From the NCBI RefSeq assembly GCF_003334255.1, contig NZ_QOWU01000004.1: a stretch of 64,000 nucleotides of DNA. One strand, given 5' to 3'. The DNA is from Escherichia coli (GTDB lineage: Bacteria > Pseudomonadota > Gammaproteobacteria > Enterobacterales > Enterobacteriaceae). Position numbers and translations under genes: made by a program. Of the stretch, positions 17,962 through 29,017 are shown piece by piece. Every line of letters begins with the position of its first letter. Positions within the stretch are counted from its first letter, which is position 1. The notes under the pieces are model-generated. The model was not told the origin of the DNA and did not search any database. It saw only the letters and a program-made list of their open reading frames with translations.

Positions 17962-20673
<2,712 letters not shown>

Positions 20674-20677
20674 GTTT

Positions 20678-20702
20678 AGCCGGATAACGCGCCAGATCCG
20701 GC
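20678..20702. terminator. Hairpin between convergent malT and rtcA (possible bidirectional terminator)
   Basis: gccggat-N9-atccggc inverted repeat. Confidence 0.45.
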
Positions 20703-20715
20703 TTACATCTCTGCA

Positions 20716-21735
<1,020 letters not shown>

Positions 21736-22962
21736 TTATCCTTTTACGCACACCACCTGACGCAGGGTATAGATAACTTCCACCAGATCGCTTTGTGCCG
21801 CCATCACCGCATCAATATCTTTATACGCCATCGGGATTTCGTCGATCACTTCGGCATCTTTACGGCATTCCACATGCGCGGTGGCACGAATTTGATCTTC
21901 CACGCTGAACAGTTTTTTCGCTTTAGTTCGGCTCATTACCCGCCCGGCACCGTGGCTGCACGAACAGAACGACTCTTCATTTCCCAGCCCACGGACGATA
22001 AAGCTTTTTGCTCCCATCGAACCGGGAATAATTCCATATTGACCAGCACGCGCAGACACCGCGCCTTTACGCGTCACGTAGATCTCTTCACCAAAGTGCT
22101 GTTCTTTTTGCACATAGTTGTGGTGACAGTTGATCTCTTCCATCGCCAGCGTTTGTGGCTGTCTGACCGTTTTCTGCGTAATGCTCTGCAATGCCGTTAC
22201 CACGTTTTCCATCATCGCATCGCGGTTAAGGCTGGCAAAAAGCTGCGCCCAGGCCACGGCTTTCAGGTAATCATCAAAGTATTCCGTACCTTCCATAAAG
22301 TACGCCAGATCACGCGACGGCAACGTCTCAAGCGTTTCCTGCATCTCTTTTTGTGCCAGATCGATAAAGTAAGTCCCGATGGCGTTACCAATTCCGCGTG
22401 AACCGGAGTGCAGCATAATCCACACCTGGTCCGACTCATCAAGGCAGATTTCAATAAAGTGGTTACCGGTTCCCAGCGTTCCCAGGTGTTTATAGTTATT
22501 GGTATTCAGGAAACGGGGATATTTTTGCGTTAACCACTGATAACCGGCTTCAAGCTCAGCCCATTTAGCATCGACGTTAACAGGTGGATTTTCCCAGGCA
22601 CCTTTATCACGTTTACAACGGCCAGTGGTACGCCCGTGCGGCACGGCCGTTTCAATCGCCTGACGCAGCTCTGCCAGGTTTTCAGGCAGGTCTTCCGCCG
22701 TTAACGCGGTACGCAGCGCGTTCATTCCACAGCCAATATCCACGCCCACCGCCGCCGGAATAATCGCCCCTTTGGTCGGGATCACGCTACCAATGGTGGA
22801 ACCTTTACCCAGGTGTACATCAGGCATTACCGCAATATGTTTGAAAATAAACGGCATCTTCGCCGTATTAATAAGTTGCTGACGCGCATCGGCCTCTACC
22901 GGCACGCCTTTGGTCCACATTTTTACCGGGGCATTTTCAGTGGTCAGTAATTCGTAATTCAT
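21736..22962 (-). CDS. rtcB: RNA-splicing ligase RtcB (408 aa)
   Basis: ORF MNYELLTTENAPVKMWTKGVPVEADARQQL...; recognised. Confidence 0.95.
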   Translation of the reverse strand: MNYELLTTENAPVKMWTKGVPVEADARQQLINTAKMPFIFKHIAVMPDVHLGKGSTIGSVIPTKGAIIPAAVGVDIGCGMNALRTALTAEDLPENLAELRQAIETAVPHGRTTGRCKRDKGAWENPPVNVDAKWAELEAGYQWLTQKYPRFLNTNNYKHLGTLGTGNHFIEICLDESDQVWIMLHSGSRGIGNAIGTYFIDLAQKEMQETLETLPSRDLAYFMEGTEYFDDYLKAVAWAQLFASLNRDAMMENVVTALQSITQKTVRQPQTLAMEEINCHHNYVQKEQHFGEEIYVTRKGAVSARAGQYGIIPGSMGAKSFIVRGLGNEESFCSCSHGAGRVMSRTKAKKLFSVEDQIRATAHVECRKDAEVIDEIPMAYKDIDAVMAAQSDLVEVIYTLRQVVCVKG

Positions 22963-22999
22963 TTTGTTTTTCTCTTTTCGTTGTTTGCTGTCCTGATAA

Positions 23000-23017
23000 T
23001 TGCAACCGTCGTGCCAG
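23000..23017 (-). promoter_or_regulatory. Sigma-54 (-24/-12) promoter of rtcBA
   Basis: Minus strand reads CTGGCAC-GACGG-TTGCAA (TGGCAC-N5-TTGCA consensus) about 40 bp upstream of the rtcB ATG, facing the rtcR activator gene. Confidence 0.8.
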
Positions 23018-23150
23018 AAAATTAAATAAGCAGCTTAATTTTTTAATTCATTGTTTTAAAAAAGATTATATCTTTACGTCCGTAACCGGAGATTTCCCGC
23101 AAAGCCAATTTACCGATAATGAAATATCGTCTTTTATAAGGATATCTAAG

Positions 23151-24749
23151 ATGCGTAAAACAGTGGCTTTTGGCTTTGTCGGTACCGTACTGGATTATGC
23201 CGGGCGCGGCAGTCAGCGCTGGTCAAAATGGCGTCCGACACTCTGTTTATGCCAGCAAGAATCGTTGGTCATCGATCGACTGGAATTGTTGCACGACGCC
23301 CGCTCGCGCTCGCTATTTGAAACGCTTAAACGCGATATCGCCAGCGTTTCGCCAGAAACAGAAGTGGTGAGCGTTGAGATTGAACTGCATAACCCGTGGG
23401 ATTTCGAAGAGGTCTACGCCTGCCTGCATGATTTCGCCCGTGGTTACGAGTTTCAGCCAGAAAAAGAAGACTATTTAATTCACATCACCACCGGTACCCA
23501 CGTCGCGCAGATTTGCTGGTTTCTGCTGGCAGAAGCGCGTTACCTGCCCGCCCGGCTGATACAATCTTCACCTCCGCGCAAAAAAGAACAGCCGCGCGGC
23601 CCAGGTGAAGTAACGATTATCGATCTCGATTTAAGCCGTTATAACGCCATCGCCAGCCGCTTTGCCGAGGAACGCCAGCAAACGCTTGATTTTCTTAAGT
23701 CCGGCATTGCCACGCGTAACCCCCACTTCAACCGCATGATTGAGCAGATCGAAAAAGTGGCGATCAAATCCCGCGCGCCGATTCTGCTTAACGGTCCAAC
23801 CGGCGCGGGCAAGTCATTTCTGGCGCGACGCATCTTCGAGTTAAAACAGGCGCGGCATCAGTTTAGCGGCGCGTTTGTGGAAGTGAACTGCGCCACCCTG
23901 CGCGGCGATACCGCCATGTCGACGCTGTTTGGTCATGTAAAAGGCGCGTTTACCGGGGCGCGGGAATCTCGTGAAGGTTTATTACGCAGCGCCAACGGCG
24001 GAATGTTGTTTCTTGATGAGATTGGCGAACTGGGCGCAGACGAACAGGCAATGCTGCTGAAAGCCATTGAAGAGAAAACCTTTTACCCGTTTGGCAGCGA
24101 TCGCCAGGTGAGCAGTGATTTTCAGCTTATCGCCGGAACGGTGCGCGATTTGCGCCAGCTGGTTGCCGAAGGCAAATTTCGCGAAGATCTGTACGCGCGG
24201 ATCAATCTCTGGACCTTCACCCTGCCGGGTCTACGCCAGCGCCAGGAAGATATTGAACCGAACCTGGATTATGAAGTGGAGCGCCACGCCTCACTCACTG
24301 GCGACAGCGTGCGTTTTAACACCGAAGCGCGGCGCGCCTGGTTGGCTTTTGCGACCTCTCCCCAGGCAACATGGCGCGGTAACTTTCGCGAACTTTCTGC
24401 CAGCGTCACGCGGATGGCCACCTTTGCCACTAGCGGACGCATCACTCTGGACGTGGTTGAAGATGAGATAAACCGTCTGCGCTATAACTGGCAGGAGAGC
24501 CGCCCCTCCGCGCTTACGGCGTTGCTGGGCGCAGAGGCAGAAAACATCGATCTCTTCGACCGTATGCAACTGGAACACGTTATCGCTATCTGCCGCCAGG
24601 CAAAGTCGCTTTCCGCAGCCGGACGCCAGCTTTTTGACGTTTCGCGCCAGGGCAAAGCCAGCGTCAATGACGCGGATCGGCTACGCAAATACCTGGCGCG
24701 TTTTGGTCTGACGTGGGAAGCCGTGCAGGATCAGCACAGCTCCAGTTGA
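23151..24749 (+). CDS. rtcR: Sigma-54-dependent activator RtcR (532 aa), N-terminal CARF-like sensor and AAA+ domain
   Basis: [23 protein letters not shown]...; Walker A GPTGAGKS and GAFTGA motif present. Confidence 0.95.
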
Positions 24750-25489
24750 ATATGGTGGTCCGTCAGCACCTGCATCACGCTTACTGGCGGCGGGGCGTCG
24801 GTGTAGACGGCATCTACCATGCTGATGCTGCCCATATTGACCATCGCGTTACGGCCAAATTTCGAGTGATCGACAACCAGCATAACGTGGCGCGAGTTCT
24901 CAATAATGGCGCGTTTGGTGCGAACTTCGTGGTAATCGAACTCCAGCAGCGAGCCGTCGCTATCGATGCCGCTTATCCCCAGAATGCCGAAATCAAGGCG
25001 GAACTGGGAGATAAAATCGAGCGTCGCTTCGCCAATGATCCCGCCATCGCGGCTGCGTAATTCGCCACCGGCGAGAATGATGCGAAAATCTTCTTTTACC
25101 ATCAACGTGTTAGCAACGTTGAGATTGTTGGTGACAATGCGCAAATTGCTGTGATTGAGCAGTGCGTGCGCTACCGCTTCCGGCGTGGTGCCGATATCGC
25201 TAAACAGCGTCGAGCCATTGGGGATTTGCTCCGCCACTTTGCGGGCGATGCGCTCTTTTTCTTCGGTCTGGGTGGCCTTGCGATCGTGCCACGGCGTGTT
25301 AACCGAACTGGAAGGCAGCGCCGCACCGCCATGATGGCGCAGGATCAGGTTTTGCTCCGCCAGCTCATTGAGGTCGCGGCGAATAGTCTGCGGGCTGACG
25401 GAGAAATGCTCTACCAGCTCTTCGGTACTGACATAACCCTGCTGTTTAACCAGTTCGATAATACCGTTGTGACGTTGTGTTTGTTTCAT
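24731..25489 (-). CDS. glpR: DeoR-family glycerol-3-phosphate regulon repressor GlpR (252 aa)
   Basis: ORF MKQTQRHNGIIELVKQQGYVSTEELVEHFSVSPQTIRRDL...; 3' end overlaps rtcR 3' end by 19 bp. Confidence 0.95.
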   Translation of the reverse strand: MKQTQRHNGIIELVKQQGYVSTEELVEHFSVSPQTIRRDLNELAEQNLILRHHGGAALPSSSVNTPWHDRKATQTEEKERIARKVAEQIPNGSTLFSDIGTTPEAVAHALLNHSNLRIVTNNLNVANTLMVKEDFRIILAGGELRSRDGGIIGEATLDFISQFRLDFGILGISGIDSDGSLLEFDYHEVRTKRAIIENSRHVMLVVDHSKFGRNAMVNMGSISMVDAVYTDAPPPVSVMQVLTDHHIQLELC

Positions 25490-25505
25490 TTATAAATCCC
25501 TGGAA

Positions 25506-26348
<843 letters not shown>

Positions 26349-26380
26349 TTATTCCACACAAAAGGGGACAGTATAAAGCG

Positions 26381-26785
<405 letters not shown>

Positions 26786-26896
26786 TTATACATATCACTC
26801 TAAAATGTTTTTTCAATGTTACCTAAAGCGCGATTCTTTGCTAATATGTTCGATAACGAACATTTATGAGCTTTAACGAAAGTGAATGAGGGCAGC

Positions 26897-28402
26897 ATGG
26901 AAACCAAAGATCTGATTGTGATAGGGGGCGGCATCAATGGTGCTGGTATCGCGGCAGACGCCGCTGGACGCGGTTTATCCGTGCTGATGCTGGAGGCGCA
27001 GGATCTCGCTTGCGCGACCTCTTCCGCCAGTTCAAAACTCATTCACGGTGGCCTGCGCTACCTTGAGCACTATGAATTCCGCCTGGTCAGCGAGGCGCTG
27101 GCTGAACGTGAAGTGCTGCTGAAAATGGCCCCGCATATCGCCTTCCCGATGCGTTTTCGCCTGCCACATCGTCCGCATCTGCGCCCGGCGTGGATGATTC
27201 GCATTGGTCTGTTTATGTACGATCATCTGGGTAAACGCACCAGCTTGCCGGGATCAACTGGTTTGCGTTTTGGCGCAAATTCAGTGTTAAAACCGGAAAT
27301 TAAGCGCGGATTCGAATATTCTGACTGTTGGGTAGACGACGCCCGTCTGGTACTCGCCAACGCCCAGATGGTGGTGCGTAAAGGCGGCGAAGTGCTTACT
27401 CGGACTCGCGCCACCTCTGCTCGCCGCGAAAACGGCCTGTGGATTGTGGAAGCGGAAGATATCGATACCGGCAAAAAATATAGCTGGCAAGCGCGCGGCT
27501 TGGTTAACGCCACCGGCCCGTGGGTGAAACAGTTCTTCGACGACGGGATGCATCTGCCTTCGCCTTATGGCATTCGCCTGATCAAAGGCAGCCATATTGT
27601 GGTGCCGCGCGTGCATACCCAGAAGCAAGCCTACATTCTGCAAAACGAAGATAAACGTATTGTGTTCGTGATCCCGTGGATGGACGAGTTTTCCATCATC
27701 GGCACTACCGATGTCGAGTACAAAGGCGATCCGAAAGCGGTGAAGATTGAAGAGAGTGAAATCAATTACCTGCTGAATGTGTATAACACGCACTTTAAAA
27801 AGCAGTTAAGCCGTGACGATATCGTCTGGACCTACTCCGGTGTGCGTCCGCTGTGTGATGATGAGTCCGACTCGCCGCAGGCTATTACCCGTGATTACAC
27901 CCTTGATATTCATGATGAAAATGGCAAAGCACCGCTGCTGTCGGTATTCGGCGGTAAGCTGACCACCTACCGAAAACTGGCGGAACATGCGCTGGAAAAA
28001 CTAACGCCGTATTATCAGGGTATTGGCCCGGCATGGACGAAAGAGAGTGTGCTACCGGGTGGCGCCATTGAAGGCGACCGCGACGATTATGCCGCTCGCC
28101 TGCGCCGCCGCTATCCGTTCCTGACTGAATCGCTGGCGCGTCATTACGCTCGCACTTACGGCAGCAACAGCGAGCTGCTGCTCGGCAATGCGGGAACGGT
28201 AAGCGATCTCGGGGAAGATTTCGGTCATGAGTTCTACGAAGCGGAGCTGAAATACCTGGTGGATCACGAATGGGTCCGCCGCGCCGACGACGCCCTGTGG
28301 CGTCGCACAAAACAAGGCATGTGGCTAAATGCGGATCAACAATCTCGTGTGAGTCAGTGGCTGGTGGAGTATACGCAGCAGAGGTTATCGCTGGCGTCGT
28401 AA
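26897..28402 (+). CDS. glpD: Aerobic glycerol-3-phosphate dehydrogenase GlpD (501 aa)
   Basis: ORF 26882..28402 trimmed to METKDLIVIGGGINGAGIAADAAGRGL... (FAD-binding GGGINGAG). Confidence 0.96.
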   Translation: METKDLIVIGGGINGAGIAADAAGRGLSVLMLEAQDLACATSSASSKLIHGGLRYLEHYEFRLVSEALAEREVLLKMAPHIAFPMRFRLPHRPHLRPAWMIRIGLFMYDHLGKRTSLPGSTGLRFGANSVLKPEIKRGFEYSDCWVDDARLVLANAQMVVRKGGEVLTRTRATSARRENGLWIVEAEDIDTGKKYSWQARGLVNATGPWVKQFFDDGMHLPSPYGIRLIKGSHIVVPRVHTQKQAYILQNEDKRIVFVIPWMDEFSIIGTTDVEYKGDPKAVKIEESEINYLLNVYNTHFKKQLSRDDIVWTYSGVRPLCDDESDSPQAITRDYTLDIHDENGKAPLLSVFGGKLTTYRKLAEHALEKLTPYYQGIGPAWTKESVLPGGAIEGDRDDYAARLRRRYPFLTESLARHYARTYGSNSELLLGNAGTVSDLGEDFGHEFYEAELKYLVDHEWVRRADDALWRRTKQGMWLNADQQSRVSQWLVEYTQQRLSLAS

Positions 28403-28444
28403 ATTAACGTAAGGTGATCAGGTCAGATTTCAATCTGGCCTGAG

Positions 28445-28575
28445 ACTGATGACAAACACAAAACTGCCTGATGCGCTACGCTTATCAGGCCTACGTGGTT
28501 TATGCAATATATTGAATTTGCATGGTCTTGTAGGCCAGATAAGACGTTCACGTCGCATCCGGCATGAACAAAGCG
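28445..28575. repeat. REP/BIME cluster downstream of glpD
   Basis: gcctgatgcgctacgcttatcaggcctacg ... gtaggccagataagacgttcacgtcgcatccggcatg. Confidence 0.8.
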
Positions 28576-28607
28576 CACTTTGTCAAAAATCTAACCTACT
28601 TTTTAAT

Positions 28608-28889
28608 TCAGGGAATTACCGCAAAGCCCACGCCATCATACCCAACGTAACAAAACTCAGGCACGTTCCCCACTCGCCCCGAGAAAAATAGCATTAATGC
28701 GCCCAGCGCCAGCATAAAAATTTTGAGCAGAAGGTAAATTGTTGGCGTGATAAGGATATTACAAACTTCAATAATACCGGCAAGTCCGACACCCAGCATG
28801 GCAATAACCACCGCCAAAAATTGCGCCAGTATGGGGATGCCGAAAAAAGTCATTACCAGCGAGGTCAAAATCCATTTTCTGTTTTGCAT
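28608..28889 (-). CDS. yzgL: Small hydrophobic protein YzgL (93 aa)
   Basis: ORF 28608..28901 trimmed to MQNRKWILTSLVMTFFGIPILAQFLAVVIAMLGVGL...; two predicted TM helices. Confidence 0.6.
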   Translation of the reverse strand: MQNRKWILTSLVMTFFGIPILAQFLAVVIAMLGVGLAGIIEVCNILITPTIYLLLKIFMLALGALMLFFSGRVGNVPEFCYVGYDGVGFAVIP

Positions 28890-29017
28890 TATTCTTTCCA
28901 TTCTTTTTGAATGGTGAAATTATACTCCCCGAGTCCCCTTGCCCCTTCTGGACACTTTTCCGAAATGATGGCGGAAAAAAACGGGACCCTTTGGCCCCGT
29001 TCTATTTATTGGTGAAC

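Follow-up and report, generated by a model that had tools for sequence, protein, structure and literature searches.

The genes rtcR and glpR of Escherichia coli converge with no intergenic DNA left between them, and the question raised by this locus is whether their shared 3' ends form a dedicated regulatory device or merely reflect the way in which two reading frames happen to meet on opposite strands. The junction was analyzed within a stretch of 64,000 nucleotides of E. coli DNA (contig NZ_QOWU01000004.1), referred to here as the window. The rtcR coding sequence, whose product is the sigma-54-dependent activator of the rtcBA RNA-repair operon, occupies positions 23151-24749 of the plus strand (532-aa ORF; NCBIfam NF038308 equivalog and RefSeq annotation). 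The glpR coding sequence, which encodes the glycerol-3-phosphate repressor, lies at 24731-25489 on the minus strand (252-aa ORF; NCBIfam NF008154) and is preceded in the glpEGR operon by glpG and glpE, which were placed at 25506-26707 of the same strand by ORFs and annotation and whose transcripts continue through glpR. Several promoters serve glpEGR, two of them within glpG (Yang & Larson 1998, as cited in PMC5442614). The original prediction held that the two genes overlap by 19 bp at their 3' ends, that this leaves no room for terminators and that convergent transcription could cause mutual interference.

The ends of the two ORFs place the overlap at 24731-24749 on both strands. The 3' end of rtcR reads ...CAG GAT CAG CAC AGC TCC AGT TGA with its stop codon at 24747-24749 (plus strand), while glpR reads ...CAA CTG GAG CTG TGC TGA with its stop codon at 24733-24731 (minus strand), and the third codon positions of both frames coincide throughout the overlap (24731, 24734 and so on to 24749). 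RtcR scored 852 bits against NF038308 (cut-off 650), a profile that spans only residues 1-527, and GlpR scored 549 bits against NF008154 (cut-off 331) with a match covering residues 1-252 of 252. Both are bona fide protein-coding genes, and the predicted gene identities, strands, coordinates and 19-bp overlap were borne out alike by the NCBIfam matches, the ORF ends and RefSeq. The overlap is not new in itself, as it is present in the reference annotation: identical relative coordinates are found in the RefSeq annotation of MG1655, JM83, APEC E19019 and strain 300709. The window aligns one to one with MG1655 from position 3535118 onwards (coordinate offset 3535117), and RefSeq places the MG1655 genes at 3558268-3559866 (rtcR) and 3559848-3560605 (glpR). 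Over the first 48 kb the window differs from MG1655 by eight substitutions and one 1-bp indel, and this E. coli is thus close to K-12. In MG1655 glpR is a pseudogene owing to a 1-bp deletion at window position 25339, and its frameshifted ORF ends at 3560288, 440 nt ahead of the normal stop.

Overlaps of this kind are common enough to provide a frame of reference. Lillo & Krakauer (2007, PMC2174442) counted 58 convergent overlaps in E. coli and found that the phase frequencies of such overlaps fit a model of stop-codon mutation, in which 4-bp tetramers of the type TTAA or CTAA are the modal state. Among the seven convergent junctions in the first 50 kb of the window only the one described here overlaps, the remaining gaps ranging from 28 to 205 bp. 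A gene that loses its stop codon is expected to run on for about 20 codons at a stop frequency of 3/64 per codon, and the run-on at this junction amounts to five. By these measures the 19-bp overlap is statistically unremarkable.

The origin of the overlap was approached by aligning junctions from related genomes with the glpR stop codon as anchor. A protein search with the C-terminal 132 aa of RtcR returned mostly fragments and led to Salmonella and two other loci. A comparison of starts and stops in homologous genomes had been suggested along with the original prediction, and it showed an overlap of 4-38 bp and a spacer of zero in all 10 Enterobacteriaceae junctions examined. The same 19-bp overlap was found at eight loci from Escherichia spp. 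and Klebsiella oxytoca, and overlaps of 4, 35 or 38 bp at five other enterobacterial loci. The shortest form is seen in Salmonella, where rtcR ends in ...CAG AAT TAA and the palindromic TTAA supplies both stops, the glpR stop being the reverse complement of TTA; Superficieibacter and a metagenome locus (L028) carry CTAA instead, likewise with a 4-bp overlap. Five species or lineages of Escherichia and K. oxytoca have TCAG...TGA and an overlap of 19 bp, and Intestinirhabdus and a further locus (L030) combine TCAG with the loss of 7 nt upstream, which changes the reading frame of rtcR and gives overlaps of 35 and 38 bp. The presence of a zero spacer at every Enterobacteriaceae locus examined could reflect selection rather than history.

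In this alignment the E. coli codon 528 (CAG, 24732-24734) falls on TAA, the codon at which rtcR stops in Salmonella, Superficieibacter and L028. Exchange of T and C at the second base of the tetramer retains a glpR stop (TAA or TGA) while interconverting the rtcR stop TAA and a glutamine codon. The 19-bp overlap probably arose by such a one-base stop-codon change. In the scheme suggested by the alignment, rtcR and glpR of the Enterobacteriaceae adjoin tail to tail without a spacer, with the 4-bp stop/stop tetramer as the minimal state. Conversion of the rtcR stop to glutamine would add five codons (QHSSS) up to the next in-frame TGA, which lies inside the antisense of the glpR Ile-Gln codons, and stop loss followed by run-on would yield the overlap of Escherichia and K. 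oxytoca. A single transition could toggle the 4-bp and 19-bp states either way. The analysis adds to the annotation this one-base toggle, which accounts for the 19 bp, together with the published evidence, discussed below, that the glpR mRNA ends inside rtcR by Rho-dependent termination.

The protein tails indicate which of the two genes constrains the shared sequence. The RtcR extension, Gln528-His-Ser-Ser-Ser followed by the TGA stop (24732-24749, plus strand; glpR-anchored junction alignment), falls beyond the end of the NCBIfam profile at residue 527. RtcR was compared in 19 homologues (Enterobacteriaceae, Pseudomonas, Desulfovibrio and others). They remain conserved as far as the motif ...RFGLxWxx[VIL]; the tails that follow the conserved Trp521 comprise 2-10 residues and agree in neither length nor sequence. 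The GlpR C-terminus, QLELC followed by the stop, is invariant in 10 of the 10 aligned junctions. Only two sites of the overlap, 24740 and 24746, vary among the eight loci with the 19-bp form (Escherichia spp. and K. oxytoca), and the variation is synonymous in both genes. The last RtcR residues read as the antisense of the GlpR C-terminal codons, and since the RtcR profile stops at 527 and the homologue tails vary, the overlap appears to cost RtcR nothing. It would be the conserved GlpR C-terminus that holds the overlap sequence in place, with the added RtcR tail lying outside the conserved RtcR fold.

How the two transcripts end is the second part of the question. No intrinsic terminator was found at or near 24731-24749, and the scan of positions 22900-27000 returned seven sites against 5.9 expected; a promoter scan of the same region gave nothing above the shuffled expectation. 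Folds of the junction were unremarkable (z = -0.9 and -1.6). A bidirectional intrinsic terminator at the junction was considered and rejected, there being no GC-rich hairpin flanked by an A-tract and a U-tract. A hairpin that spans the stop codon of glpR (24715-24742, minus strand) was taken as a chance structure, given the z score of -1.6 for the surrounding fold and the disruption, judged by eye, of pairs in APEC and Escherichia sp. E1V33. An Rfam E-value scan of positions 20000-29000 gave no match at the junction. Sub-threshold REP-like Rfam matches were seen at 28487-28569.

Published MG1655 data sets supply the 3'-end mapping that had been proposed as a check of the overlap. The 'Primary' 3' terminus of glpR lies at MG1655 position 3559751 (range 3559746-3559759; PMC10687069), which is window position 24634 and 98 nt past the stop, so that the transcript crosses the overlap. 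The glpR 3' UTR (24634-24730, minus strand; PMC10687069, Supplementary Data 3 and 4) is in its entirety antisense within the rtcR coding sequence, and its coverage of 0.23-0.31 is about equal to that of the coding sequence (0.29-0.37) in the same MG1655 study (PMC10687069). According to these MG1655 data, RNA from glpR extends through the overlap and is antisense to at least 116 nt of rtcR coding sequence. Further downstream, a region of Rho-dependent termination is centered on window position 24397 of the minus strand (MG1655 3559514), classed as 'antisense rtcR' in Supplementary file 2 of PMC7815308, approximately 334 nt beyond the glpR stop; this position is approximate as windows of 800 nt were used. 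Upstream and downstream reads in MG1655 numbered 154 and 29 without bicyclomycin and 153 and 256 with it, corresponding to a Rho score of 8.9 (p = 2.7e-27; PMC7815308). Such a location is common, as 51.5% of the 1078 Rho regions reported in that study are antisense to genes, and Rho-terminated RNAs are trimmed by 3' exonucleases (Adams et al. 2021, PMC7815308). The Term-seq list of Adams et al. contains no discrete 3' end at rtcR/glpR, and the published data sets searched report none for rtcR.

The sequence past the glpR stop shows a modest excess of C over G. The C/G ratio is 1.25-1.39 over 24760-24643 and 1.0-1.28 over 24550-24423, as against 1.52 for the 90th percentile of the window. All of these values fall short of that mark, so the sequence gives no clear sign of a rut site. 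MG1655 is atypical at this locus: since its glpR is frameshifted and translation stops 440 nt early, loading of Rho may occur sooner there than in the glpR+ strain of the window. Taken together, these data are compatible with a simple course of events. With no intergenic DNA available, termination would have to take place inside the partner gene. Transcripts of glpEGR would run untranslated past the glpR stop and antisense into rtcR, to be ended by Rho a few hundred nucleotides further on, and their ends would probably be trimmed back to a strong stem-loop, leaving the 98-nt 3' UTR. Read-through of rtcR into antisense glpR is presumably handled likewise. Of the claim that there is no room for terminators, the absence of intergenic space stands; termination nevertheless occurs, but inside the coding sequence of the partner, as in many convergent E. 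coli genes.

The stem-loop in question is an extended structure in the glpR 3' UTR (24643-24700, minus strand) that emerged from folding 24733-24634 of that strand. Its predicted stability is -39.7 kcal/mol (z = -3.3), and none of 200 shuffled sequences was as stable. The stem ends 9 nt before the mapped glpR 3' end and is followed by AAACGUCAAAAAG, which contains no U-tract. Covariation was unsupported in 12 enterobacterial sequences, with a single double-change pair and 62 of 500 shuffles reaching the observed score. As there is no covariation and the site lies in a strongly conserved RtcR motif, the stability of the stem-loop may be a by-product of coding sequence.

These observations are best summarized by regarding the rtcR/glpR overlap as a neutral, annotation-level convergent overlap rather than a dedicated regulatory device, a reading to which we assign a probability of roughly 0.75 and in which the lack of a regulatory role is inferred. 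Three other explanations have to be weighed against it. The overlap would be spurious if one C-terminus were mis-assigned and the proteins did not truly overlap, as might be suspected from the last five RtcR residues, which are unconserved and outside the family profile. Such an artefact is scarcely credible, as the rtcR ORF is uninterrupted to 24749, the GlpR C-terminus is identical in every aligned junction and matches its profile end to end, and a frameshift or sequencing error would be needed to avoid the overlap, yet 5423 of 5426 E. coli genomes contain a match to at least 80% of a 901-base query that spans it (24300-25200). A different reading-frame assignment at either C-terminus had been named as an outcome that would undo the prediction; neither ORF contains an earlier in-frame stop, so that the C-termini of RtcR and GlpR have no alternative, and mis-annotation was rejected on these grounds. 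A more tangible alternative is non-canonical intrinsic termination, in which the stem-loop itself would stop or pause the polymerase and set the glpR end at 24634 while Rho further downstream mops up read-through. The great stability of the hairpin relative to shuffled controls and its position just ahead of the terminus speak for this, as does the report that, for about 20% of the E. coli genes that overlap convergently, intrinsic terminators are predicted within the partner (PMC2174442). It is nonetheless unlikely: the stem lacks the U-tract and drew no call in the terminator scan, the Term-seq set of Adams et al. contains no 3' end at the hairpin, downstream read-through is strongly sensitive to bicyclomycin, and changes in Salmonella and Klebsiella erode the hairpin without compensating for lost pairs.

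The remaining alternative grants the overlap a function in cis. The glpR 3' UTR, antisense to at least the last 116 nt of the rtcR coding sequence, and any rtcR read-through antisense to glpR would tune glpEGR and rtcR reciprocally in the manner of an excludon or of mscL-arfA, possible routes being cleavage of the duplex by RNase III and collision of RNA polymerases. The published MG1655 tables do place glpR transcripts over the rtcR 3' coding region, the tail-to-tail layout without a spacer is kept in all of the Enterobacteriaceae junctions, and E. coli offers a precedent in the mscL 3' UTR, which is complementary to the arfA 3' coding sequence and participates in RNase III-dependent regulation (PMC10070815). 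Transcriptional interference by collision has also been argued to be frequent in bacteria (PMC10349824). However, the supplementary tables of that collision study contain neither rtcR nor glpR, nor do entries for either gene appear in the supplements of the SMRT-Cappable-seq and TERMITe studies. Coverage of the glpR coding sequence is low (approximately 0.3 against 4.5 for glpD in the same table, PMC10687069), encounters between polymerases would be rare if rtcR is, as we assume, also weakly transcribed, and the control of RtcR acts chiefly on its activity, by way of the ligand-sensing CARF domain (PMC7790460). The length of the overlap varies between 4 and 38 bp, the hairpin of the 3' UTR lacks covariation and MG1655 carries a glpR pseudogene. 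Moreover, approximately 10% of complete E. coli genomes (566 of 5426) have no match to 22900-24300, which covers the start of rtcB, the promoter region and RtcR residues 1-383; they lack the first two thirds of rtcR, yet glpR and its flank are kept. Examples of rtcR loss include a deletion that fuses rtcA to rtcR (L003) and a locus in which 33 rtcR codons remain (L025). A search within 3 kb of rtcR in the non-enteric loci turned up no GlpR homologue, and the partnership of the two genes is accordingly not retained wherever they occur. In the literature searched, no paper was found on the rtcR-glpR overlap and none on a cis effect between the two genes. Functional coupling of this kind is therefore considered improbable. 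More specific versions of it are fainter prospects. It is very unlikely that glpEGR read-through antisense to the last 100-350 nt of rtcR would lower the amount of full-length rtcR mRNA through a cis-antisense link at the zero-spacer junction, and just as doubtful that this would involve events such as RNase III cleavage giving rise to non-stop messages. Read-through of glpEGR is described as partly responsive to cAMP-CRP. If such a link were real, carbon-source status would be tied to the inducibility of RtcBA RNA repair, in a manner resembling mscL-arfA.

As a neutral convergent overlap, the junction matters little alone; it is annotated in the reference, belongs to a well-described class of about 58 E. 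coli pairs and has a simple neutral origin. Its value is that of an example. A synonymous swap of stop codons in glpR (TAA to TGA) can remove the stop of the convergent neighbor and lengthen its protein. Convergent genes that lack a spacer depend on their transcripts being terminated within the coding sequence of the partner, at this locus by Rho. Deletions or cassettes in rtcR or glpR, such as knockouts of the Keio type, can impair the partner at its C-terminus or in its 3' UTR. Transcript data from MG1655 are atypical at the rtcR-glpR locus because its glpR is a pseudogene.

Comparison with known systems places the locus among three groups. It shares with mscL-arfA the tail-to-tail arrangement, complementarity between the 3' UTR of one gene (glpR at this locus) and the 3' coding sequence of its neighbor (rtcR), and a partner that takes part in a response to RNA or translation stress. 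The two differ in that experiments on mscL-arfA demonstrated reciprocal control, altered stability of transcripts and processing by RNase III, while rtcR-glpR is known from its sequence and from the mapped end of the glpR transcript. A likeness also exists to the Rho-terminated read-through and antisense RNAs (Peters et al. 2012, as cited in PMC7815308; Adams et al. 2021), which likewise comprise untranslated RNA that extends past a stop codon, antisense into a neighbor, with bicyclomycin-sensitive read-through; the rtcR/glpR locus is itself one of the 1078 listed regions. In this comparison the strain of the window differs, as Rho action was measured in MG1655, whose glpR pseudogene creates a longer untranslated stretch, and the C over G bias is modest. 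The best match is to the convergent pairs of Lillo & Krakauer. As in those pairs, two real genes on opposite strands have common 3' ends, the modal state among relatives is a 4-bp tetramer, TTAA or CTAA, both listed in PMC2174442, the longer overlap corresponds to a lost stop with extension to the next in-frame stop, and there is no intrinsic terminator, as in about 80% of the E. coli genes in such pairs. The rtcR/glpR overlap belongs to phase 123:213, as does a 4-bp overlap of the ancestor type, because 19 and 4 leave equal remainders when divided by three. This phase is the rarest of the three in E. coli (22% observed); otherwise nothing essential sets rtcR and glpR apart from the other members of this class.

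The glpR gene is intact in the window and encodes a protein of 252 amino acids, whereas in MG1655 a 1-bp deletion at window position 25339 (glpR codon 50-51) turns the gene into a pseudogene whose ORF ends at 3560288. Because the window carries an intact glpR where MG1655 has lost a base, the window genome is K-12-like but distinct from MG1655. The yrhA gene also differs between the two genomes. In MG1655 it is split by IS1E (3583428-3584195), an insertion that is absent from the window (about 48311), and the alignment jumps from window position 48311 to position 49079 of the MG1655 locus. In the first 48 kb of the window, substitutions relative to MG1655 were found at positions 2706, 4497, 13282, 19047, 23837, 25200, 26619 and 37411. 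All but one of these eight (7/8) are non-synonymous, affecting yhgF (twice), malQ, rtcR (L229F), glpR, glpE and glgB, a share that would be unusual for naturally arising variants. At 23837, strains 300709 and C3728 likewise have C, in agreement with APEC; the minority allele at this position is therefore that of MG1655 and JM83.

The changes in glpR and glpE were not shared with the comparison genomes. The substitution at window position 25200 results in GlpR Ile97Ser, which lies inside the conserved TLFIDIGTT motif, and that at 26619 results in GlpE Gln30Leu; neither is present in MG1655, JM83, strain 300709 or APEC. A perfect match to the 71 nt around position 25200 was found in none of 5426 complete E. 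coli genomes, and GlpR residue 97 is isoleucine in all 11 other enterobacterial sequences compared. The glpR change could have been introduced deliberately, have arisen as a mutation in the laboratory or be an error of sequencing. Further along the window, Rfam matches to ES036 (31 bits) and naRNA4 (29.5 bits), both below their gathering scores, were obtained in the glpD-yzgL spacer (28487-28569) and appear REP-like.

In approximately 10% of complete E. coli genomes a deletion removes rtcB, the 5' part of rtcA and most of rtcR, and what these genomes still keep of rtcR is a short 3'-terminal remnant adjoining glpR. One example is NZ_CP124337.1 (region 2098-2884 of the locus), where the remnant beside glpR is about 400 bp long; only 33 rtcR codons are left in the E. 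coli locus L025 (3001-3099), in which an ORF of malT size ends about 250 bp away from glpR. The deletion in NCTC11023 is larger and truncates glpR itself. In the enterobacterial loci L028 (a metagenome locus; 1526-3118), L030 (1281-2848) and L031, the gene calls divide rtcR into two ORFs (318 and 205 amino acids in one case), which suggests frameshifted or pseudogenised alleles beside an intact glpR.

A published Rho termination region antisense to gntT is located at MG1655 position 3547196 (minus strand; window about 12079) (Adams et al., PMC7815308). This region probably represents malPQ read-through into the convergent gntT, and malPQ/gntT is thus probably another example in the window, besides glpR/rtcR, of termination within a convergent neighbour.
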